DNA from: Candidatus Saccharimonadota bacterium
GTDB lineage: Archaea > Nanohalarchaeota > Nanosalinia > Nanosalinales > Nanosalinaceae
Assembly: GCA_001761425.1 (NCBI GenBank)
Contig: CP012986.1
Location: forward strand, 180,001-212,000
DNA: 32,000 nt
Direction: 5' to 3'
The stretch's first letter is position 1. Every line of letters begins with the position of its first letter. A program made the translations under genes and the position numbers. The notes under the pieces are model-generated. The model worked only from the letters and a program-made list of their open reading frames with translations. It did not search any database and was not told where the DNA came from. Below, piece by piece: positions 8,280 to 31,029 of the stretch.

Positions 8280-9051
8280 TTTTCAGGTTATTCTCTATCG
8301 CAGTTTTTATACTCTGGTAGTCGTTTCCGACCTGCTGGCCGTTCACGTACACGGTCGGGGTGGACGTAACTCCGTTACCGTTGGCGATCCTCTGATCCGC
8401 CTGTAACTCGTTAGCTGTGCTCTGGCTGTCGAGGCCTTCCCTGATTTCTTCTGCTGTAAGATTGGTTGTCTCTGTAGCTGTATTGACAATAATTCCTTGA
8501 TTCAACCTTGTTTCTGTTCCGTAGAGTTTACTGTGGAAGTCCCAGAAGTTGTCTCTGTCGTTCTCCCAGATGTATTCTCCGGCTCTGGCGGCAAGGCCTG
8601 ATGTCTCGTCTATTACCGGTAGGTTGATGTAGTAGAACTTTACATCTCCGCTGTCTATGTACTCGTTTTTCAGCTTTGGCTTGATCTCGCTGTCAAACGT
8701 TTTGCAGTGAGGACACTGGTAGTCTCCGAACTCCACTACTGTCACAGAAGCGTTTTCATCGCCCAGCATAGGCTGTCTGTAGAGTTCAAAAGGACTGGAC
8801 TGGAACATTGACATAACCTGGGGTAGGACAAGAGCCACGAATATGATCAGTGTGACGCCTGTAAGGCCTTTCAAAAGAAGATTTCTGCGTCTTGACCTGT
8901 TTATTTCTTCTTTCTGTTCTTTTTCTCTTTTGGCTTTCTTTGTTTTTTCTTTTTGGTGGGAGTTGAGTTCGTCTTCATGTTTTTCTTCCCAGTGAAGGTG
9001 CAGATCTTTTCCTGATTCAAATTTTTCGCCGCAGAATTTGCATTCCTTCAT
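8269..9051 (-). CDS. membrane-anchored DsbA-like thiol:disulfide oxidoreductase with N-terminal C2H2 zinc finger
   Basis: 260 aa. The classical finger is 'CKFCGEKFESGKDLHLHWEEKH' (C-x2-C-x3-F-x5-L-x2-H-x4-H). It is followed by a K/R/E-rich linker and one TM ('GLTGVTLIIFVALVLPQV'). The thioredoxin-fold domain carries 'YQCPHCKTF' and a DsbA-like tail. Confidence 0.8.
   Translation of the reverse strand: MKECKFCGEKFESGKDLHLHWEEKHEDELNSHQKEKTKKAKREKEQKEEINRSRRRNLLLKGLTGVTLIIFVALVLPQVMSMFQSSPFELYRQPMLGDENASVTVVEFGDYQCPHCKTFDSEIKPKLKNEYIDSGDVKFYYINLPVIDETSGLAARAGEYIWENDRDNFWDFHSKLYGTETRLNQGIIVNTATETTNLTAEEIREGLDSQSTANELQADQRIANGNGVTSTPTVYVNGQQVGNDYQSIKTAIENNLKNGN
8921..9000 (-). repeat. near-identical 80-nt segment shared with 9665-9745 (N-terminal zinc-finger/linker module of two adjacent genes)
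   Basis: By hand alignment, 8921-9000 and about 9665-9745 differ at 6 of 80 positions. The rest of the two genes is unrelated. Confidence 0.8.
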
Positions 9052-9100
9052 ATAAAGAATAAATGATGGACGGGGTATAAACCCGTTCTGATACAGTTTT

Positions 9101-9796
9101 CTAACTCATGGATTGAGACTGCGTGGTCACCTGAGACTGCAGTTCGCCGATCTCTTCCTCTGTGTAGTTTCCGTAGGTGAGCAGGATCTGGTCGCCGGTC
9201 TCGAACCTGAAATCTGTGGGTTCGATCTCTCTCCAGTCTTCGTCAGTGTTCACAAACATCCTTACTTCTCCGTTCTCGCCTTCACGGTAAGTGTCGCCTG
9301 GAGTCTGGAGGAAAGTGCTGTTGTAGTCAAAGCCAAGTGTCCTCATGAAGAATCTGAAATGCGCTCCAGTAGCATGGGAGTGGACTACGTCTCCGTTACC
9401 GCCCTCTACGTGAGCTTTAGATGACACCACCTGGTACTCTGAACGGGAGAAATCAATTTCCTCGCCCTCAACAACTACAGAGAAATCAGCGTGGTAGTGA
9501 GCAGAACCTGCAGGGCCTACATTCCCAGGTGCTTCAGGCATGGAAGAGGTAAGCTGTGGAGCTAACATGGCACCTCCGCCTACCAGAGCTACAAGTATTA
9601 CACCTAGCACAGCATAATTTCTGTACTCTTTCCTCTTTGCCCGCTTCCGCTCCCTTTCCTTCTTTTTTTCTCTTTTGGCTTTCTTTACTTTTTCTTCTTG
9701 ATGGGAGTTGAGTTCCTCTTCATGTTTTTCTTCCCAGTGAAGATGAAGTTCAGTCTCATCCTCAAACTCTTCCTCACAGAATTCACATTCAACCAT
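9101..9796 (-). CDS. membrane protein with N-terminal C2H2 zinc finger and His-rich extracytoplasmic domain
   Basis: 231 aa. 'CEFCEEEFEDETELHLHWEEKH', then a K/R-rich linker and the TM 'AVLGVILVALVGGGAML'. The external domain contains 'SAHYHADFSVVVEGEEIDF...AHVEGGNGDVVHSHATGAHF'. The N-terminal module is about 92% identical at DNA level to that of the neighbouring gene. Confidence 0.7.
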   Translation of the reverse strand: MVECEFCEEEFEDETELHLHWEEKHEEELNSHQEEKVKKAKREKKKERERKRAKRKEYRNYAVLGVILVALVGGGAMLAPQLTSSMPEAPGNVGPAGSAHYHADFSVVVEGEEIDFSRSEYQVVSSKAHVEGGNGDVVHSHATGAHFRFFMRTLGFDYNSTFLQTPGDTYREGENGEVRMFVNTDEDWREIEPTDFRFETGDQILLTYGNYTEEEIGELQSQVTTQSQSMS

Positions 9797-9854
9797 AAAA
9801 CCAGATATAAAGTTCGAAATTTATATCATAAATCACTCGGAAGAGAAAAAAGAT

Positions 9855-10121
9855 ATGCTGGAAGGAACATTACTCGATAAAGGCCTGCACATGATAACTG
9901 TTGTAGCAGCGACAGGCCTCTTCACAGTATCCTACACAGCTTATAAGAAACAGGAGAACAAAAAATTCCTGTATATACTACTGGCTTTCGCGGTATTCGC
10001 ACTTAAAGAAACCTTGATAGCGATAAACTCTTTACACGTAAACAGTGCGACGCTTACGACGGCCGCTCATCTCCTGAACCTGGCTATCTTAGGCCTTTTT
10101 TACAGAGGCACGGTACAATGA
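9855..10121 (+). CDS. small membrane protein (2-3 TM), hypothetical
   Basis: 88 aa and hydrophobic. Its stop overlaps the next ATG (ATGA at 10118-10121), which suggests translational coupling with the regulator. Confidence 0.55.
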   Translation: MLEGTLLDKGLHMITVVAATGLFTVSYTAYKKQENKKFLYILLAFAVFALKETLIAINSLHVNSATLTTAAHLLNLAILGLFYRGTVQ

Positions 10122-10579
10122 GACAGCAGATACTTGAAACTGTAGAACAGAATCCTGGAATACATTTTAGACAGGTGCAGAGAGAACTAGGTTGTTCTTC
10201 AACCACGCTTAACCACCACATCAGCTCTCTGAACGTGAAGGAGAGAAATTTCAGAGGGTACAGGCGTTTCTATCTGCAGGATATTTCAGAGAAGATGGAG
10301 AGGCCTCTGGCAGCTCTGAATCATAATGTAAGAGGGATTATGCTTTACCAGATGCAGGGCGGTATCTCGCAGAAAGAGCTTGTGGAGAACTTTGATCTCA
10401 GCAAGTCCACTGTTTCGTCTCACGTGAAAGTTATGAGAGAAGACGGTGTTATAAAAGAGGAGAGAGAGGGAAGATCGAAGAAGCTTTTCCCTTCAGAAAG
10501 TGCCTGGAAGGCCTTGAACGGTTACGCGTCCCAGATACTTGGTGGAGCGTCTGAAGGTTTCATAGAGATGTGGGGCTAG
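10118..10579 (+). CDS. transcriptional regulator with two winged-helix (ArsR-like) modules
   Basis: 153 aa. The two modules are 'ILETVEQNPGIHFRQVQRELGCSSTTLNHHISSL' and 'ISQKELVENFDLSKSTVSSHVKVMREDGVIKEE'. Confidence 0.75.
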   Translation: MRQQILETVEQNPGIHFRQVQRELGCSSTTLNHHISSLNVKERNFRGYRRFYLQDISEKMERPLAALNHNVRGIMLYQMQGGISQKELVENFDLSKSTVSSHVKVMREDGVIKEEREGRSKKLFPSESAWKALNGYASQILGGASEGFIEMWG

Positions 10580-10631
10580 TTCGGCAACTGTTTCACTAGC
10601 TTATTAATAGCCTCATCTAAATTTTAACGGT

Positions 10632-12260
10632 ATGAAGAAAGTATTTCCCGCTCTCATGGTGGTTTTCACTTGTCTAATATTTTTTGTCTCAGGGGCTTTT
10701 GCTCATTCTACAGGTGGTGGGAACGTCCAGGGATTCGAGAAAGCGCCTGCGACTCAGAATGCCGAGGTTCCTGTGCCTGAGGAGAAGTGTCCTAACGTTA
10801 ATGATTCCTGGAGACAGGCCCAGAGCTTTTACGGAGTCCAGGTTGATGAATCTCAGCAGTGTATGCCTGATAACCCTAAGCTTGTAGCTGCCGTCACTGA
10901 AGGTACTAATAATGTTCCTATGATGGATCTTATGGATTTAGGCCTTTCCAAGGACGCTGTGAGTAAAGGAGAAGATCTTGATGGAGATGGCGATCCTGAT
11001 GTTATCAATATCACGCTTGAGGTTCAGGAGATCAATGGTAGAAGCCCTTCCGGCAGTTCTGTTGAAGGAATTTCTCAGGAGATTGCTCCAGGTATTAGCC
11101 CTGGTTTCTGGGTTTTTGCCCCGAAGACACGCGGGATGGCGACAGAGGGGGCCTCGGCTTCAAGTATTGTAAGATCTCCTTCTCCCACTATACGTGCTGA
11201 GGAAAGTGATCGTGTGAATATTAAACTTGAGAATACGCATTATTTCCCTCACACGATCCATTTCCATGGAGTTGACCACGATTTTGAAGTGAATGGAAGT
11301 GGTAACGACGGTGTTCCACAGGTAAACGGTGAACCGGCGATGCCGGGAGGCACACAGGAGTATTCTTTCAAGCCTGAACAGCCTGGTTCTATGTTTTACC
11401 ATTGCCATGTTCAGCCGAATACGCATGTACTGATGGGTCTTCAGGGAATGTTCAGTGTAGAAGAGGAAAGGGACAACAATACAGTCCAGACATTTAACAT
11501 AGGCGGTGGAAAGGTCAGAAACCCTTCAGAAGCCGTTGAACAGGAGTATGATAATGAATACGATATGATTTACAGAGGCCTCGATAAGGAACTTCATAAC
11601 AAGATAAAGAAATCGAACGATCCCCGGGTTATTGCGGAAGGAGTAAACAAGGAGTACGATGTGACAGAAAGAAACCCGGATTATTACCTATTAAACGGTA
11701 AATCCTTCCCGTATACAGTGAGGGAGTCTCAGGTGGTGGTTGAGGAGAACGAGACCACAAAGATGAGAGTCCTGAATACTGGAAGCGAAGGCCTTTCACT
11801 GCATCCTCATGGACACAAACCGACAGCGACGCATTATGACGGTGTTGAAGTAGATGAAGAGGCCCGGATTCAGAGAGATGTCTTTGATATATCGGCAGCA
11901 CAGAGAGTGGATCTGGAGATCAACTCTACGGAGGATGGGTTGAACTCTTATGGGCCTGGCGCGTGGTTTATGCACAATCATAAGGAGGAGGCAGTTACTA
12001 CAGATGGGATAGCTCCGGGAGGAGATGTCACACTTCTTACATACGAGTCGTATCAGGGGGAGGAGAATCTTCCTCAGAAAGGTGTGTCCTGGGATCAGTT
12101 CTTCACTGAGAAGTACTACGAGGGAAAGATACCTATGTGGCAGGGCCTCAGCGACAAATATGGGAATATAGAGGTCCAGCCGGCCTCGACCTCTACGGTA
12201 GTGCTGATAGGATTGATGGGCCTTATTCTTGGAGCTCTAGGCGCAATGGTGGTAGTCTAA
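10632..12260 (+). CDS. two-cupredoxin-domain multicopper oxidase, secreted, C-terminal membrane anchor
   Basis: 542 aa with a signal peptide ('MKKVFPALMVVFTCLIFFVSGAFA'). Copper motifs occur in the order 'HTIHFHG' (HxH), 'YHCHVQPNTHVLMG' (T1/trinuclear HCH), 'LHPHGH' and 'WFMHNH'. The C-terminus is hydrophobic ('VVLIGLMGLILGALGAMVVV'). Confidence 0.85.
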   Translation: MKKVFPALMVVFTCLIFFVSGAFAHSTGGGNVQGFEKAPATQNAEVPVPEEKCPNVNDSWRQAQSFYGVQVDESQQCMPDNPKLVAAVTEGTNNVPMMDLMDLGLSKDAVSKGEDLDGDGDPDVINITLEVQEINGRSPSGSSVEGISQEIAPGISPGFWVFAPKTRGMATEGASASSIVRSPSPTIRAEESDRVNIKLENTHYFPHTIHFHGVDHDFEVNGSGNDGVPQVNGEPAMPGGTQEYSFKPEQPGSMFYHCHVQPNTHVLMGLQGMFSVEEERDNNTVQTFNIGGGKVRNPSEAVEQEYDNEYDMIYRGLDKELHNKIKKSNDPRVIAEGVNKEYDVTERNPDYYLLNGKSFPYTVRESQVVVEENETTKMRVLNTGSEGLSLHPHGHKPTATHYDGVEVDEEARIQRDVFDISAAQRVDLEINSTEDGLNSYGPGAWFMHNHKEEAVTTDGIAPGGDVTLLTYESYQGEENLPQKGVSWDQFFTEKYYEGKIPMWQGLSDKYGNIEVQPASTSTVVLIGLMGLILGALGAMVVV

Positions 12261-12871
12261 TGAGAAATAAAGCTTTGTTGATCACGGTAGTTTTTGCAAT
12301 TCTGGTAAACCCGGCTTCAGCCAGTGTCATGGGGCAGAACACAGATAAGATGCCTCCTGGATGTGAAAGCATTTCAGGCACAGCCAATATAACTGTAGAG
12401 GCAGGTACAGATCACGCAGATAAGTTCCCCTCGAAGATGTACACCTACAGCGACAGAAAGATGCAGTTTGAACCATGTACAAAGCTGACAGTCAACTTCA
12501 TCAACAATGACTCGGTCAGACATCAGTGGATGGTGCACGGACTTCCCAAGGAAACATATCCTATGGGAATGTTCATGCTCGAAGTCACAGGACCAGGAGA
12601 GGAAACGGGAACATTCATCCTTCCAGCCGGGGACGAATCTCTCATGATCCACTGCGGACTCGGACAGCACATGCAGAAAGGAATGAAAGCCCAGCTCACA
12701 GTAGGAGAAGGAGATGGCAAAGTATCAAACATTCCAGGCCATACAGCAGCATTCAACGAACACGGCTACGAAAGTGAAAGCGTAGTGCCGATGGCAGCAA
12801 CAGTTGGCCTACTGATGATGTTGCTCGGAGCAGGAATAATAGTAATCCTGGAAAGAAAAACAGAAGAATAA
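12260..12871 (+). CDS. cupredoxin (type-1 blue copper protein), secreted, C-terminal membrane anchor
   Basis: I take the internal ATG at 12260, which overlaps the oxidase stop (TAATG) and gives a signal peptide ('MRNKALLITVVFAILVNPASA'). The T1 ligand pattern is 'HQWMVHG ... IHCGLGQHMQKGM' (H, C, H, M). The C-terminal TM is 'VGLLMMLLGAGIIVIL'. Confidence 0.8.
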   Translation: MRNKALLITVVFAILVNPASASVMGQNTDKMPPGCESISGTANITVEAGTDHADKFPSKMYTYSDRKMQFEPCTKLTVNFINNDSVRHQWMVHGLPKETYPMGMFMLEVTGPGEETGTFILPAGDESLMIHCGLGQHMQKGMKAQLTVGEGDGKVSNIPGHTAAFNEHGYESESVVPMAATVGLLMMLLGAGIIVILERKTEE

Positions 12872-26303: not shown

Positions 26304-27194
26304 ATGGAAGAAGAAGTTAAACAGAAATACGTCAGATCTGGCAAAGTCATCCAGAAGGCCAGGAAAAAGGCCCGGGAAATCGCTGAACCGGGTACAGAAT
26401 ACAGAGAGATCGCTGATACCGTAGAGGATCTTATCAGAAATGAAGGCCTTGAACCGGCTTTTCCTGTCAACCTTTCCGCTGACGAGGAGGCAGCACATTA
26501 CTCGCCGGGGACCGGTACTGAACGTGTAATAGGAGAGGATGAAGTGCTGAAGATCGATATTGGTGCTCACTGCGATGGCTATATTGCGGACACTGCTCTC
26601 ACAGTAAATCCTTCAGGAAAGCATCAGAAGATGATCGAGACCAATCGTGAAATCTTGGAGAAGGCCCTGGAGTTTGTCAAGCCCGGTAAAACTGTTGGAG
26701 AGTTCGGTACATTCGTGCAGAACCAGATTCCGGACGAGTACAACGTTGTCAGGAATCTTACAGGACATTACTTGGGTCATTATACCCAGCACGCAGGTGT
26801 TTCTATTCCGAACAACAGGAACGCGTCTAACCATGTTTTCGAGAAAGGAGATGCTATTGCCATCGAGCCTTTCCTGACCAAGGGAAGTGGAAAAATCAAG
26901 GAGGGAAAAGAAGGGAATATCTATCTTGGACAGGGCGGAAACGTCCGTGGAAGAGCTGAGAGAAAGCTTCTGAAGCAGGTTAAAGGTTTTGAAGGCCTTC
27001 CGTTCTCACCGCGTTGGTTTGACAGTTTTTCAGGCCGGGATAAGATGGCTTTGAAAAAACTGGTTCAGTCCGGAGCTGTGAAGTCATATCCGATTCTGAG
27101 AGAGGTCGATAAAGGTATCGTTACTCAGGCAGAGCATACAGTTCTTGTCGGCGTAGATGATGGCGAGAATATAGTTACTACGCGTTCGGATTAG
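26304..27194 (+). CDS. map: methionine aminopeptidase, type 2 (archaeal)
   Basis: 296 aa with 'AFPVNLSADEEAAHYSP', 'KIDIGAHCDGYIADTA', 'GHYLGHYTQHAG', 'AIEPF' and 'AEHTVLV'. The helical insertion typical of type 2 is present. Confidence 0.92.
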   Translation: MEEEVKQKYVRSGKVIQKARKKAREIAEPGTEYREIADTVEDLIRNEGLEPAFPVNLSADEEAAHYSPGTGTERVIGEDEVLKIDIGAHCDGYIADTALTVNPSGKHQKMIETNREILEKALEFVKPGKTVGEFGTFVQNQIPDEYNVVRNLTGHYLGHYTQHAGVSIPNNRNASNHVFEKGDAIAIEPFLTKGSGKIKEGKEGNIYLGQGGNVRGRAERKLLKQVKGFEGLPFSPRWFDSFSGRDKMALKKLVQSGAVKSYPILREVDKGIVTQAEHTVLVGVDDGENIVTTRSD

Positions 27195-27690
27195 CGCAGA
27201 CGTTCGGGTCTCCTGATCTGTGTAGAAGGCCTGCCATTATTGCTATGCCTCCGAGTTTGATCAGGTTTCCGTCGAAAGGCAGAGCTGCGAGGGCTCCTGT
27301 GAATCCGAAGGCTGCTAATAGGCCTAGTCCGCAGCTGGCGCATCCTGTTACAAGGAGGCCTGGCAGGAATCCTCCAAGGTTCAGTATTCCAGAGAATTTT
27401 TTTGTTTTCAGGCTGAGGTATGTGTTTGTCACTGTTATGCCCGTTATTATGGAGTAAGTTATTGTCAGTCCGAGGCCTATTAGTCCTGTGGTGTCTATTA
27501 TTCCGAGTGTTGCCAGTCTTATGATTTCTGGGAAGTAGGTCCAGCTTCTGGAAAGGAGCTGTGAGGAATAGGTCGGTAGTGAGAAATAGGCCAGGATGGA
27601 ATATGCGAGGAAGGAGCCGAAGAAGGTCAGGAGGATCTGTCTCCCGTTTACTGATGCTTCGACTGCCTTCCTGAATTTTGTTTTGGTCAT
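27178..27690 (-). CDS. hypothetical 4-5 TM membrane protein with membrane-embedded CxxC
   Basis: 170 aa with a basic N-terminus. 'FLPGLLVTGCASCGLGLLAAFGF' puts C-A-S-C between two Gly-rich hydrophobic segments, and a third Cys sits in the C-terminal tail ('NVCANPNA'). The start is 1 nt after the stop of the upstream DsbA-like gene. The 3' end overlaps map by 17 nt (convergent). Confidence 0.6.
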   Translation of the reverse strand: MTKTKFRKAVEASVNGRQILLTFFGSFLAYSILAYFSLPTYSSQLLSRSWTYFPEIIRLATLGIIDTTGLIGLGLTITYSIITGITVTNTYLSLKTKKFSGILNLGGFLPGLLVTGCASCGLGLLAAFGFTGALAALPFDGNLIKLGGIAIMAGLLHRSGDPNVCANPNA

Positions 27691-27691
27691 G

Positions 27692-28669
27692 TCAGCTGTT
27701 GAGTTTGGATTCTATGACGCTTTGAACTGCGCTGAACGGCTGTGCGCCGACTAGAGGTTCGCCTGTTTCATCTCCTTCTCCGTAGATGACGGAGCTAGGT
27801 GTTCCGCTTATGAACTGGCTTGCGCCCTGTGGGGTCTGTACAACTGTATCGAAGTTTCTTCCTTCTGTTTTATCTGCGTTGACTTCATCCATAGGGCTTT
27901 CGTTCTCAAGGCAGGTTCTGACTGCGTCTTCGCTTACTCCTTCATCTGATGCCCAGGAAATTATCCGGTCCCGGACGTTGTCAGTGCTGATCGAATCCTG
28001 GTTCTGGAAGATCAACTCCTTCACATTCCAGAACGCATCGTTATCCTGTCTGTAGACACATTCCATGGTCTCTGCCGAAGGCTCCGCCCAGTCATGTCCC
28101 AGTGACGGGAGTGGGAAATCCTTCCAGATAACTTTGACCTGTCCGCTCTCAACGTATTCTGCATTAACTTTAGCCATAGCACCTGTCTCAAACCTTTGGC
28201 AGTAAGGACACTGGAAATCCTCATAGACTACCATAGTTACAGGAGCATCTTCCTCTCCCAGGACAGGCTCGCCCTCGGTCTCAAGATTCGACAGGTCAAC
28301 AGTCTCAGAAGAACCGGAATTACTTCCATCTCCCGAAGGACCGGAATCTCCACTGTCCCCGTTAATCGCACCCGGGGCATCCAGACTCAGTCCTGAACCT
28401 GCAGCAAGAAGGCCTGTAGAAAGACCTACTGCTACACCGAGAACGAAAACACTGAACAGTGCCAGCTCTACCGGTATCTGCAGACGTCTCTCATCTATAG
28501 GGAAATCTCTGTCTGATCCCTCGCTGGCCTCTTCAACTTCTTCGCTTTCAGTAGTACTTTCCTGTTTTTCATCATCCTCGTGGACCTGACCTACGTGAAT
28601 ATGAAGGCCTCTCTCGGAGTCAAACTCCTCACCGCAGTTATCACAAGTATAATTATCCGACATAAACAT
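27692..28669 (-). CDS. membrane-anchored DsbA-like thiol:disulfide oxidoreductase with N-terminal C2H2 zinc finger
   Basis: 325 aa with 'YTCDNCGEEFDSERGLHIHVGQVH' (C-x2-C-x3-F-x5-L-x2-H-x4-H). This is followed by an acidic linker, the TM 'LALFSVFVLGVAVGLSTGLLAAG' and a Ser/Gly/Asp linker. The thioredoxin fold carries 'FQCPYCQRF'. Confidence 0.8.
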   Translation of the reverse strand: MFMSDNYTCDNCGEEFDSERGLHIHVGQVHEDDEKQESTTESEEVEEASEGSDRDFPIDERRLQIPVELALFSVFVLGVAVGLSTGLLAAGSGLSLDAPGAINGDSGDSGPSGDGSNSGSSETVDLSNLETEGEPVLGEEDAPVTMVVYEDFQCPYCQRFETGAMAKVNAEYVESGQVKVIWKDFPLPSLGHDWAEPSAETMECVYRQDNDAFWNVKELIFQNQDSISTDNVRDRIISWASDEGVSEDAVRTCLENESPMDEVNADKTEGRNFDTVVQTPQGASQFISGTPSSVIYGEGDETGEPLVGAQPFSAVQSVIESKLNS

Positions 28670-28734
28670 AATTGACCGCAGAACTGTTAATAAATAGAAG
28701 GGTTACGAGGGAGTATCCCCCGTCTAAAAGGCCT

Positions 28735-31029
28735 CTAGGCGTAATAATCAGGTGTGTCGTCTTCGTCAGTCTCCATCTCGTTCATCTTCTGAGTCATCGC
28801 CCTGTACTGCTCAAGGTTGTCTGAAGTAGCCGTAGGCCTTACATCGGCGATAGCCTCCTCAAATTCCTCCATGGTTGCCTCCCCTGAATCGATGTCGCTT
28901 CTCAACGCGTTCATCCCTGCCTCTCTACAGGCAGACTCTATATCTGAACCGACGTATCCCTCGGTCATTTCTCCTAACTCATCGAGGTCTACATCGTCAC
29001 CGACAGGCATGTCTCGTGTATGGACCTCGAAAATTTTTCTCCTGCCTTCTTCATCAGGGATCTCGACTTCTACGTTCCTGTCAACTCTTCCAGGCCTCAT
29101 TATCGCTGGATCGATCATGTCAGGCCTGTTGGTTGCAGCGATGACTGTGACTCCTTCAAGACTCTCTATTCCATCCAGCTCTGTCAACAGCTGGTTGACC
29201 ACGCGGTCTCCTACTCCTGAATCGCTGCTTCTTCCTCCTCTTCGTGGTGCAATTGAGTCTATCTCATCGATGAACAGGATGCACGGTGCTACCTGACGAG
29301 CCTTCTTGAAGATCTCTCGCACGGCTTCCTCGGATTCCCCGACGTACTTGGAGAAGACTTCAGGGCCTTTGATGGAGATGAAGTTTGCGTTCGCCTCGTT
29401 TGCCACTGCTTTGGCCAGGAGAGTTTTTCCTGTACCGGGCATGCCGTACATCAGGATTCCTTTAGGCACTTCGATACCCATCTTCTCAAACCTGTCCGGA
29501 TACTTCTGAGGCCATTCTACCATCTCCTTCAAACGGTCTTTTGTATCGTTCAGGCCTCCTATGTCTTCCCAGGAGACTTCTGGGACCTCTACCATAACTT
29601 CTCTCATCTGGCTTGGCTCTACGTTTCTCATGCCATCTATCATTGCAGCTCTGCCAACTACAAGCTGTTCAAGCACCTCAGAAGGTATTTCTTCGTCCAT
29701 ATCGATCTCAGGTATCACCTCTCTCAGCACGGACATCGCAGCTTCTTTACATAAGGCCTCGAGGTCGGCTCCTACATAGCCGTGGGTCTTTTCTGCGATC
29801 TCATCGAGATCTACGTCTTCTTCCAGGGGCATATTCCTTGTATGGATCTGGAGAATCTCTTTTCTACCTCCTCTGTTCGGCACTCCGATCTCTATTTCCC
29901 TGTCGAACCGTCCTCCTCTTCTGAGAGCAGGGTCAATAGCTTCTGAACGGTTTGTAGCAGCGATGACTATAACGTTTTCCCTGCTTTCAAGGCCGTCCAT
30001 CTCGGAGAGGAGGGTTGCGACGACCCGTCTTTCTACTTCTCCGCCTGCGTCACCTCTCTTCGGTGCGATGGCATCGATCTCATCGATGAAGATGATAGCA
30101 GGTTCTCCTTCACGGGCCTCATCGAACTTCTCTCTCAACTGTTTTTCAGACTCTCCATAGTACTTGGACATGATTTCAGGCCCGTCAATGGAGAGGAACT
30201 GTGCATCCGCTTCATTAGCAACAGCCTTCGCCAGCAAAGTTTTACCGGTCCCCGGCGGACCCTGAAGTAAAACTCCAGAAGGTGCGTCAATACCAAGCTG
30301 CTGGAAAACCTCAGGATGCTTCAGAGGAAGCTCGATCATCTCACGAACCTTCTGAACTTCCTCATCAAGGCCTCCAATATCCTCATAGGTAACTTCCGGA
30401 ACCTGTACAGAGTCCTCTCCAGGCTCGGAAACAGCCTGTTCCCGGACCTTGATCTCAGTCTCCTGAGTGATCTTCACAGGGCCTGACGGATCTGTAGAAA
30501 CAACAGCTAGCTTTGTCTCACCGAAGCTGAACCTGAAATTATCTCCCATACCGTCAAACATGTCATCAAACAGAGAACGAGCGTTATCCTTCCCGCTCTC
30601 AGGGACAACAATATCTCCCTCAAGTACAGGCCTTCCTACAAGGCCTCTCTTGAAGATATTAGGGTCTTTTACCTGCATCATGACTCCTTCTTCTGCCGGG
30701 GCAAGTGTGATCTGTTCAGCAGCCTTGAGGTCAACTTTCTCAACTTCTACATGCTCTCCCAGGGATGTGCCTGCGTTTTTACGCATGTAGCCGTCCATCC
30801 TTGCGATTCCAAGGCCTTTATCCGCAGGATAGCTCCTGGCTACACGGCCTACTGTTTCTCTACTGCCTTCTAGGCTTACTGCATCTCCCTCTCTTACCTG
30901 GAGTTTTTCCATGATTTTGCTGTCAATTCTAACTATGCCTTTGCCAACATCCTGCTGAGCGTTTGGAGGAACTTCTCCAACCCTCAACCGTTTGGAACTG
31001 TCTTCTTCATCTGTCATCTTGTTCTTCAC
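28735..31029 (-). CDS. cdc48: Cdc48/VCP-like AAA+ ATPase (two AAA domains)
   Basis: 764 aa with an N-domain. D1 has 'GPPGTGKT' and 'IIFIDEIDA'. D2 has 'GMPGTGKT' and 'ILFIDEIDS'. Second-region-of-homology arginines are present. The alternative start 'MTDEED' is at 31017. Confidence 0.95.

Follow-up and report, generated by a model that had tools for sequence, protein, structure and literature searches.

Every well-studied DsbA-type enzyme that we know of requires a membrane protein for its regeneration, which is DsbB or VKOR for oxidation, and DsbD, CcdA, or ScsB for reduction. The finding that VKOR replaces DsbB reshaped the field, and Halobacteria as well as archaea of the DPANN group (Diapherotrites, Parvarchaeota, Aenigmarchaeota, Nanoarchaeota, and Nanohaloarchaeota) encode many DsbA-like proteins. 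Which membrane protein recycles them is the question raised by a 32,000-nucleotide (nt) stretch of a nanohaloarchaeal genome (GenBank assembly GCA_001761425.1; contig CP012986.1, positions 180,001 to 212,000 of the forward strand), hereafter called the window. On its minus strand, a gene for a 325-residue DsbA-like protein is directly followed by a gene, here termed X, for a 170-residue polytopic protein of an uncharacterized family with a single paired-cysteine motif. From this adjacency and the motif, X had been proposed as a candidate for an undescribed membrane partner that oxidizes or reduces the DsbA-like protein, possibly of a DsbB/VKOR type. The candidacy of X as such a partner is supported, at the level of sequence, by the conservation of its cysteines, by the pairing of the two genes, and by the lack of a match to any known family. 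Our preferred reading, to which we assign a probability of roughly 0.4, is that X is a dedicated membrane partner of the co-translated DsbA-like protein, unrelated to DsbB, VKOR, CcdA, and DsbD, and acts in a reductive relay of the CcdA/DsbD kind.

Conserved pairing of X with a DsbA-like gene

The two genes of the window lie head-to-tail, and the junction sequence (AGC TGA C ATG ACC) agrees with the predicted 1-nt spacing, implying co-transcription and translational coupling of the DsbA-like gene and X. A pairing scan with one genome per GTDB species covered 39 loci, which derive from many haloarchaeal genera (several of the loci on plasmids), four Nanohaloarchaea, and three uncultured archaea. 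In 38 of them, a same-strand DsbA-like gene directly adjoins X, as detected by tblastn, a recurrence well beyond what chance would give. The sole exception is locus L030, where the upstream open reading frame (ORF) encodes a DUF3592 protein; locus L043 was counted as paired, its DsbA-like gene lying inside a spurious long ORF and being revealed by tblastn. In the haloarchaeal relatives, the partner gene typically ends 4 nt inside X, with an ATGA overlap.

The upstream partner is ~245 residues long in Halobacteria, and 290–340 residues long in Nanosalina (L039) and in the uncultured-archaeon loci, where an extra N-terminal CxxC is found in place of the zinc finger of the window protein. The X-linked partners carry CPFC, CPYC, or CPWC as the active-site motif, and one partner from an uncultured archaeon has CPDC and CPSC instead. 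A haloarchaeal partner (L012) starts with an RRRALI stretch resembling, by eye, a twin-arginine translocation signal, which would be consistent with an exported partner domain. We also inspected the neighbors of nine very distant relatives of X (~20–30% identity), six of which adjoin a Thioredoxin_4-type gene (four upstream and two downstream), including one from Woesearchaeota. The co-occurrence with DsbA-like genes that the original prediction had pointed to is thus seen both among the genome loci and among most of the distant relatives, and the X/DsbA-like pair is a conserved two-gene, sometimes three-gene, module.

The gene order is reversed in locus L056 (3046–4824), in which X comes first and the DsbA-like gene begins 1 nt after it. 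This pair is preceded by a cupredoxin-like gene (weak Pfam match) and two MarR-like regulator genes, with a gene for DUF411, which we take to be a copper-associated family, located nearby on the opposite strand.

The X family and its cysteines

A word-indexed search retrieved 24 relatives of X, every one labeled 'hypothetical', and an exhaustive profile search yielded 517 representative clusters at E ≤ 1e-3, 108 of them at E ≤ 1e-10. The best 150 listed relatives are ~150–195 residues long, fragments aside. The relatives whose source is named come from, among others, Halostella, Candidatus Woesearchaeota, and Candidatus Spechtbacterales (a bacterium of the candidate phyla radiation, CPR), and many members of the family come from DPANN or CPR organisms. 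No Rosetta-stone fusion of X with a thioredoxin-fold or other domain was found, the relatives searched all being ~165–202 residues long.

Conservation was examined in an alignment of 20 sequences (A1) and in one of 62 sequences extending down to 17–30% identity (A2). The invariant residues of A1 include Pro110, Gly111, Gly116, Cys117, Cys120, Gly121, Pro138, Phe139, Gly141, Asn142, and Cys165. Cys117 and Cys120, which form the CxxC motif in the third predicted transmembrane (TM) segment, TM3, remain invariant in A2, and Pro138, Phe139, Gly141, and Cys165 are at least 90% conserved. Among 166 full-length relatives, the TM3 CxxC is present in 159 and the tail Cys in 160; both occur together in 155, and exactly three Cys residues in 136. 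The two positions between the Cys residues of this CxxC hold small residues (CASC, CAGC, CAAC, or CSSC). The window protein has exactly three Cys residues, Cys117 and Cys120 in CASC and Cys165 in the tail, as had been noted at the outset, and these are the ones that the family conserves.

On these sequences, we propose a family of ~165–190-residue proteins characterized by four predicted TM segments, a Cys–small–small–Cys motif in TM3, a P-F-x-G outer loop, and a C-terminal Cys predicted to be cytoplasmic; the window X carries every one of these features. The family is real and apparently undescribed, since neither it nor a membrane partner for archaeal DsbA-like proteins was found described earlier in the literature on archaea and DPANN.

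Predicted structure and topology of X

An AlphaFold2 model of X, obtained with a deeper alignment (mean predicted local distance difference test score (pLDDT), 85.2; predicted template modeling score, 0.77), consists of four long helices, with TM3 broken at Cys117 into two helices (residues 103–116 and 118–135 by DSSP). The net charge over A2 is +2.95 for the N-terminus, −0.23 for loop 1, +2.29 for loop 2 (between TM2 and TM3), +0.10 for loop 3, and +2.05 for the C-terminal tail. Because they are net positive, both termini and loop 2 are predicted from the positive-inside rule to be cytoplasmic, and the LPFxG loop is predicted to face outside. The CxxC sits 13–16 residues into the ~30-residue TM3 and is therefore placed near the middle of the membrane. 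Cys165 is predicted to be cytoplasmic, and no conserved Cys is predicted on the outer side.

This arrangement bears on the possibility that X is a DsbB/VKOR-like oxidant, the CxxC of which would reoxidize the DsbA-like protein and deliver the electrons to a membrane acceptor; the acceptor could be menaquinone in Halobacteria, possibly a host-derived quinone in Nanohaloarchaea, or another compound. In the lipid phase, where it is predicted to lie, the CxxC could be within reach of a quinone head-group. However, DsbB and VKOR use two extracytoplasmic Cys pairs, whereas X has one pair and none in the outer loops, its third conserved, cytoplasmic Cys would be left without a role, and neither A1 nor A2 shows a conserved Arg, His, or aromatic cluster suited to a quinone site. 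A quinone-linked oxidase is disfavored also because the X family reaches DPANN and CPR lineages, which, including Woesearchaeota, are generally without quinone biosynthesis. Together with the evidence from homology searches, the partner, and the neighboring genes given below, we regard an oxidant role as unlikely.

Alternatively, X may be a non-catalytic accessory, such as a scaffold, an assembly factor, or a regulator, with its Cys residues serving structurally in an intramembrane disulfide, a metal site, or lipid attachment. Translational coupling is typical for stoichiometric complexes of any kind, and ScsA, a small membrane CxxC protein encoded together with ScsB, ScsC, and ScsD, has no demonstrated role in a redox relay (PMC10907172). 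On the other hand, the retention of exactly three Cys residues at 20–30% identity and the presence of a small-residue CxxC in a kinked, Gly-rich helix argue for chemistry, and some X relatives have no DsbA-like neighbor. We thus consider a purely accessory function very improbable.

Searches for homology to known families

No match to X was found in Pfam or NCBIfam at E ≤ 1, and none to the 62 relatives in Pfam at E ≤ 0.01; the X family profile retrieved nothing at E ≤ 10 from all sequences of the PDB, which holds a CcdA structure. With the model of pLDDT 85.2, the best match of a Foldseek search of the PDB had an E-value of 5.5, and neither VKOR nor DsbB was among the matched chains. (An earlier model with a pLDDT of 65.6, and ~44 in the CxxC region, had given meaningless Foldseek matches.) In hhalign, the A2 profile scored a probability of 0.2% against Escherichia coli DsbB and 0.1% against E. 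coli DsbD, the latter as a 20-column, motif-level alignment to GLICSPC; with single-sequence templates, both are weak tests. The profiles, hhalign, and the Cys pattern agree that X bears no signature of DsbB, VKOR, or CcdA, as the original prediction had held. Nor did Pfam, NCBIfam, the PDB, or Foldseek assign X with confidence to some unrelated family of transporters, an outcome that would have spoken against that prediction. The same lack of sequence or fold likeness to DsbB and VKOR weighs against the oxidant role considered above.

The DsbA-like partner

The partner protein matches Thioredoxin_4 (PF13462; E = 2.7e-25; 89.9 bits, cut-off 23.2) and, narrowly, DSBA (PF01323; E = 1.1e-5; 25.8 bits, cut-off 25.6), and its membership in the Thioredoxin_4/DsbA-like group is borne out by the profile, the CxxC active site, and a G-T-P motif that, judging from sequence, is likely the cis-Pro loop of the thioredoxin fold. 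A second Cys pair (Cys204/Cys253) is a probable structural pair. The N-terminal finger-like motif is predicted to be cytoplasmic because it precedes the TM anchor, and the overall architecture is predicted to be a cytoplasmic finger, one TM segment, and an extracytoplasmic Thioredoxin_4/DsbA domain. In the earlier description of this 325-residue protein, the TM stretch, the CPYC motif, and the DsbA-like domain hold, and the C2H2 finger is a weak match below the Pfam cut-off. The gene had also been counted as the third zinc-finger-DsbA gene of the window, and is actually the second: the same N-terminal finger module occurs in ORFs 8269..9051 and 9101..9796, and a DsbA-like domain is detectable in only two of the three finger-anchored proteins, the partner of X and the product of 8269..9051, with no Pfam match for 9101..9796.

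A protein of Nanohaloarchaea archaeon SW_7_46_7 shares 94% identity with the partner, which marks the window as nanohaloarchaeal. The best match of the partner in the PDB is BdbD (E = 6.9e-15), and other solved relatives include Wolbachia α-DsbA1, Mycobacterium tuberculosis DsbA, MdbA, and ScsC. The best-studied members of this DsbA/BdbD/MdbA-type Thioredoxin_4 family are oxidases recycled by DsbB or VKOR, and a structural pair such as Cys204/Cys253 would be expected in an oxidizing exterior; both points favor X as an oxidant. So does a phylogenetic study of VKOR that mentions no DsbB or VKOR for Halobacteria, leaving their DsbA-like proteins without a known oxidant, and that mentions archaeal VKORs only for lineages such as Pyrobaculum (PMC4555120). 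In turn, reductive flow is favored by the CPYC active site, because this motif is common to ScsC and DsbG, both of which are kept reduced by DsbD/ScsB (PMC10907172). The direction is not fixed by the partner sequence, since oxidases are among its closest solved relatives.

Many longer relatives of the partner (410–540 residues; from hypersaline archaea and Chloroflexota), including P0206, P0219, P0271, and P0298, are composed of tandem DsbA-like domains and contain no X part, and P0206 and P0219 end, by eye, in a repetitive, coiled-coil-like tail. Elsewhere in the window, the product of 8269..9051 (minus strand) is a second zinc-finger–TM–DsbA-like protein, with CPHC, and that of 9101..9796 (minus strand) is a zinc-finger–TM protein with a His-rich domain. 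Both genes adjoin genes for a helix-turn-helix regulator and a multicopper oxidase (Cu-oxidase_2/3), in a cluster with ORFs 10118..10579, 10632..12260, and 12137..12871 (all on the plus strand), which also encodes a further exported protein that is cupredoxin-like by eye and has no Pfam match. The region 8269–12871 may be a copper-related envelope cluster.

Probable paralog X' and the wider gene neighborhood

In 18 of the 39 genome loci, X is directly followed by a third gene, X', which is shorter than X and encodes 134–146 residues with an invariant FGCPICN in TM3; roughly half of the haloarchaeal operons carry it. In most X' proteins, the four-TM layout predicted for X recurs and a basic stretch leads to a CxxC at the C-terminus. 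This CxxC is missing from the X' of Nanohalobium, and the window has no X' gene. X' has no match in Pfam or NCBIfam. Alignment of the C-terminal halves of X' and X by hhalign (probability, 87.5%; E = 3.6e-6) suggests that X' is probably a divergent paralog of X, with which it may pair.

A canonical cytoplasmic thioredoxin gene (TIGR01068, above cut-off) lies ~1.1–1.6 kb from X in ~10 genome loci, and subsets of loci have genes near X for DUF302, methyltransferases, a flavoprotein resembling coenzyme A (CoA)-disulfide reductase, an M20 peptidase, TusA, and a YgaP-like protein. In one haloarchaeal lineage (L003, 383–6502; L004; L005), the pair lies directly upstream of ccmE-ccmA-ccmB and has ccmF as a further neighbor. 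A thiol-reducing ccmG-ccdA pair is normally part of the Ccm systems of archaea (PMC9084895), and the location suggests that the ccm-linked pair takes part in the thiol-redox step by which cytochrome c matures. Reductive flow through X is favored because the thioredoxin, CoA-disulfide reductase, ccm, and rhodanese neighbors fit reduction; that the neighbors are of these kinds and not respiratory genes speaks against an oxidant.

A recurrent island surrounds DsbA-X-X' (for example, L001, 1141–10555, and L007, 196–10408), with several copies on plasmids. It contains genes for a TrmB-like regulator, thioredoxin, DUF302, two S-adenosylmethionine methyltransferases, the CoA-disulfide-reductase-like flavoprotein, an M20 peptidase, TusA, a YgaP-like TM protein, and a rhodanese–metallo-β-lactamase fusion, and looks like a thiol or sulfur-stress module. 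A reading of the island as a mer operon, in which X and X' would transport Hg, was rejected because its flavoprotein fits the model for CoA-disulfide reductase (433 bits) much better than that for MerA (118 bits). A gene for a single-domain cytoplasmic rhodanese directly follows X in L047 (4564–4863; a distant, probably archaeal relative) and in L045 (6554–6955; an uncultured archaeon), where the rhodanese ends in CEFC, an echo of the C-terminal CxxC of X'. In four haloarchaeal loci, an ORF of ~104 residues (L016, 6772–7086) just downstream of the operon encodes a TM stretch with LSLCCLF and a C-terminal GCAC; it looks MerT/MerF-like, or could be spurious in high-GC DNA.

These neighborhoods bear on a further possibility, in which X and X' would form a MerC/MerT-like conduit for Cu(I), Hg(II), or sulfane sulfur, with the DsbA-like protein acting as a MerP/ScsC-like binder and the ligand passing from its CxxC through the membrane CxxC to the cytoplasmic C-terminal Cys. 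MerC has four TM segments, a TM-embedded CxxC, and a cytoplasmic C-terminal Cys, and its likeness to X serves as a lead only. The copper-type genes beside the reversed pair of L056 and the multicopper oxidase gene near the other zinc-finger-DsbA gene of the window would fit such a conduit, as would the rhodanese, TusA, YgaP-like, DUF302, and CoA-disulfide-reductase-like genes, of a sulfur-trafficking type, that recur near haloarchaeal and distant copies. Moreover, two reports describe ScsC-type DsbA-like proteins, which are among the solved relatives of the partner, as binding Cu(I) tightly (PMC8900818, PMC10907172). Nevertheless, the copper and sulfur genes are each found in a minority of loci, metal-efflux or mer regulator genes are not consistently linked, and the flavoprotein is not MerA. 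Neither X (E ≤ 1) nor its 62 relatives (E ≤ 0.01) matched MerC, MerT, MerF, MerE, or another transporter in Pfam, and the sole universal neighbor is a thioredoxin-fold protein, the usual chemistry of which is thiol–disulfide exchange. A conduit function is, in our judgment, quite unlikely.

In the window itself (Table 1), the DsbA-like/X pair is preceded by a CDC48-type AAA ATPase gene, and a methionine-aminopeptidase-like gene (26304..27194, plus strand) is convergent with X, their 3' ends overlapping by 17 nt (27178..27194). A scan of 27000–28900 found no intrinsic-terminator-like structure, and the scan of the region for σ70 promoters and intrinsic terminators is uninformative, the host being an archaeon. 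The TATA-like element upstream of the pair, if real, would possibly yield a leaderless two-gene transcript. The GC content of the window is 45–50%, and its proteins are acidic as judged from the translations, both in keeping with a nanohaloarchaeal origin.

Table 1. Coordinates of the DsbA-like/X pair and its features in the window, and of representative X' genes in other loci
Feature	Position	Strand	Basis or remark
DsbA-like gene, 325 residues	27692..28669	minus	ORF
Gene X, 170 residues, predicted four TM, N-in/C-in, uncharacterized family	27178..27690	minus	ORF; homologs; model; charge
Junction TGA-C-ATG	27690..27694	minus	1 nt between the DsbA-like stop and the X start
Possible TATA-like element (TTTATTAA)	28687..28694	minus	By eye; center ~21 nt upstream of the DsbA-like ATG
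Partner: C2H2-type finger-like motif, residues 7–30, YTCDNCGEEFDSERGLHIHVGQVH	28580..28651	minus	zf-C2H2_4, E = 4e-4, below gathering score
Partner: predicted membrane anchor, residues 65–83, IPVELALFSVFVLGVAVGL	28421..28477	minus	Top Kyte–Doolittle 19-residue window; hydrophobic run to about residue 92
Partner: active site CPYC, residues 154–157	28199..28210	minus	Sequence
Partner: G-T-P motif, residues 289–291, likely Thr-cisPro loop	27797..27805	minus	Near the end of the Thioredoxin_4 match; GTP in relatives
X: TM3, residues 104–131, Gly-rich	27298..27381	minus	DSSP on model
X: Cys117-Ala-Ser-Cys120, core GCASCG (VTGCASCGLG)	27331..27342	minus	Alignments; invariant in A1 and A2
X: outer loop LPFDGN, residues 137–142, between TM3 and TM4, conserved	27265..27282	minus	Alignments; charge-neutral, hence predicted extracytoplasmic
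X: C-terminal GDPNVC, residues 160–165, with Cys165	27196..27213	minus	Invariant in A1, at least 90% in A2; tail net positive
X' examples	L020:6544-6960, L001:5552-5965, L008:6560-6973, L024:6471-6887, L028:1163-1567

Proposed role of X in a thiol relay

Based on the module described above, we infer that X interacts with its partner and that the two engage in thiol–disulfide exchange in a reductive direction. A thiol relay is the parsimonious reading, because the conserved module pairs a DsbA-like protein with a membrane protein whose CxxC is predicted to be buried and whose remaining Cys is predicted to be cytoplasmic. We consider it likely that X exchanges thiol-redox equivalents with the DsbA-like protein in one direction or the other; that it acts specifically in the reductive direction is put forward tentatively, at somewhat below even odds. 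Besides the partner motif and the neighboring genes, reductive flow is favored because X has no Cys on the outside, where DsbB and VKOR have all four, and because the cytoplasmic third Cys would otherwise be unexplained. Accordingly, the 'DsbB/VKOR-type' label first given to X is kept as to its candidacy for a DsbA partner and not as to an oxidizing direction, which is less favored with no outer-loop Cys and with the third Cys in the cytoplasm.

In the reductive relay that we prefer, a cytoplasmic thiol donor (thioredoxin, or rhodanese in some lineages) would reduce X through Cys165 as a shuttle. The electrons would then move to Cys117/Cys120, located in the membrane at the kink of the Gly-rich TM3, which in turn would reduce the CPYC motif of the extracytoplasmic DsbA-like domain. 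The reduced DsbA-like protein could serve as a disulfide reductase or isomerase, or it could reduce apocytochrome c or copper-damaged thiols. In many Halobacteria, X', with GCPICN in its TM3 and a C-terminal CxxC predicted to be cytoplasmic, would probably pair with X. We see slightly better than even chances that X, together with X' where the latter is present, represents a third class of membrane thiol-redox partner, which would be unrelated to both DsbB/VKOR and CcdA/DsbD and would work with only one CxxC in the membrane and a shuttle Cys in the cytoplasm.

Several points weigh against this relay. To our knowledge, transmembrane reductants use two Cys residues on separate helices of a six-TM inverted repeat, and none uses a single-helix CxxC. 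Genuine oxidases (BdbD, M. tuberculosis DsbA, and MdbA) are found among the proteins of solved structure nearest to the partner, and Staphylococcus aureus DsbA, also among the structure matches, is an oxidase with CPYC. The association between X and DsbA-like genes weakens at the edge of the family, where three of the nine distant relatives have no DsbA-like neighbor: in one of them, L047, X is followed by the rhodanese gene, and the other two, one from a CPR bacterium and one whose contig carries a gene for a bacterial-type DNA polymerase III subunit, lack any neighbor with a thioredoxin fold. The thioredoxin, ccm, and CoA-disulfide reductase neighbors occur only in a subset of loci that are phylogenetically related, and part of these loci may represent one mobile island. 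The confidence of the model is lowest near the CxxC (block means, 67–79), and the topology of X and the depth of its CxxC in the membrane are predictions, as are the interaction of X with its partner and the electron flow between them.

As a partner of this third class, X would account for the recycling of the DsbA-like enzymes of Halobacteria, Nanohaloarchaea, and further DPANN archaea. With ~170 residues, three Cys residues, and near-obligate co-encoding with its partner, X is a concrete and easily testable candidate, and could serve to show, in minimal form, how redox equivalents (or thiophilic ligands) might cross a membrane by means of one CxxC. It would also provide an annotation handle for more than 500 clusters now termed 'hypothetical', and the X/DsbA-like pair points to proteins that may carry out the thiol-redox step when cytochrome c is matured in some haloarchaea.

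Comparison with known systems

The X/DsbA-like module is probably a non-homologous version of the combination of a thioredoxin-fold enzyme with a membrane redox partner. DsbB (PF02600) and VKOR (PF07884) share with X four TM segments, a CxxC, and the pairing of the gene with that of a DsbA-like protein (bdbC-bdbD, and VKOR-thioredoxin fusions or neighbors). X is not homologous to them, however, and has one Cys pair instead of two, with none in the outer loops. Its CxxC is predicted to be located in mid-membrane rather than at the outer end of a helix, its third Cys in the cytoplasm, and no residues of a quinone site are recognizable. VKOR, in particular, has four conserved Cys residues (a loop pair and the CxxC of TM4) and a Ser/Thr, whereas X has the CxxC and one tail Cys.

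MerC and MerT resemble X in being small and polytopic, with a TM-embedded Cys pair, a cytoplasmic Cys, and a periplasmic CxxC partner. X differs from them in having no Pfam match and no MerA/MerR context, and its partner has a thioredoxin fold in contrast to the ferredoxin-like heavy-metal-associated domain of Mer systems. In the ScsABCD system, ScsC has CPYC, as does the window partner, which is related to ScsC structures, and ScsA, the gene of which belongs to the same operon, is like X a small membrane protein, with a CX2C predicted to be hidden in the bilayer (PMC10907172). A link to copper, as for ScsABCD, is possible in some X contexts. By description, which is the only ground on which the two are set apart, ScsA has about two TM segments, CLAC, and a lipobox-like sequence, and occurs in Proteobacteria (PMC10907172), whereas X is archaeal or from CPR, has four TM segments, and carries GCASCG and a tail Cys. 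No ScsB- or DsbD-like gene adjoins X.

CcdA and the β domain of DsbD (PF02683, PF13386) have no sequence, profile, or fold match to X. They consist of a 3 + 3 inverted repeat with a single Cys in each of the 'PC' motifs on TM1 and TM4, whereas X has four TM segments, a CxxC on TM3 alone, and, unlike CcdA/DsbD, an extra conserved Cys in the cytoplasmic tail. Nevertheless, they are likewise small polytopic proteins with membrane-buried Cys residues, encoded beside an extracytoplasmic thioredoxin-fold partner and near ccm genes (as in one X lineage) or a cytoplasmic thioredoxin gene (as in other X loci). Their logic, the linking of cytoplasmic thiols to a CxxC protein on the outside, resembles that predicted for X, with which the predicted mid-membrane CxxC, the cytoplasmic Cys165, the adjacent exported partner, and the thioredoxin gene in ~10 loci are all consistent. 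By analogy, X appears to be most like CcdA/DsbD-β in operon logic and in the predicted placement of its Cys residues.

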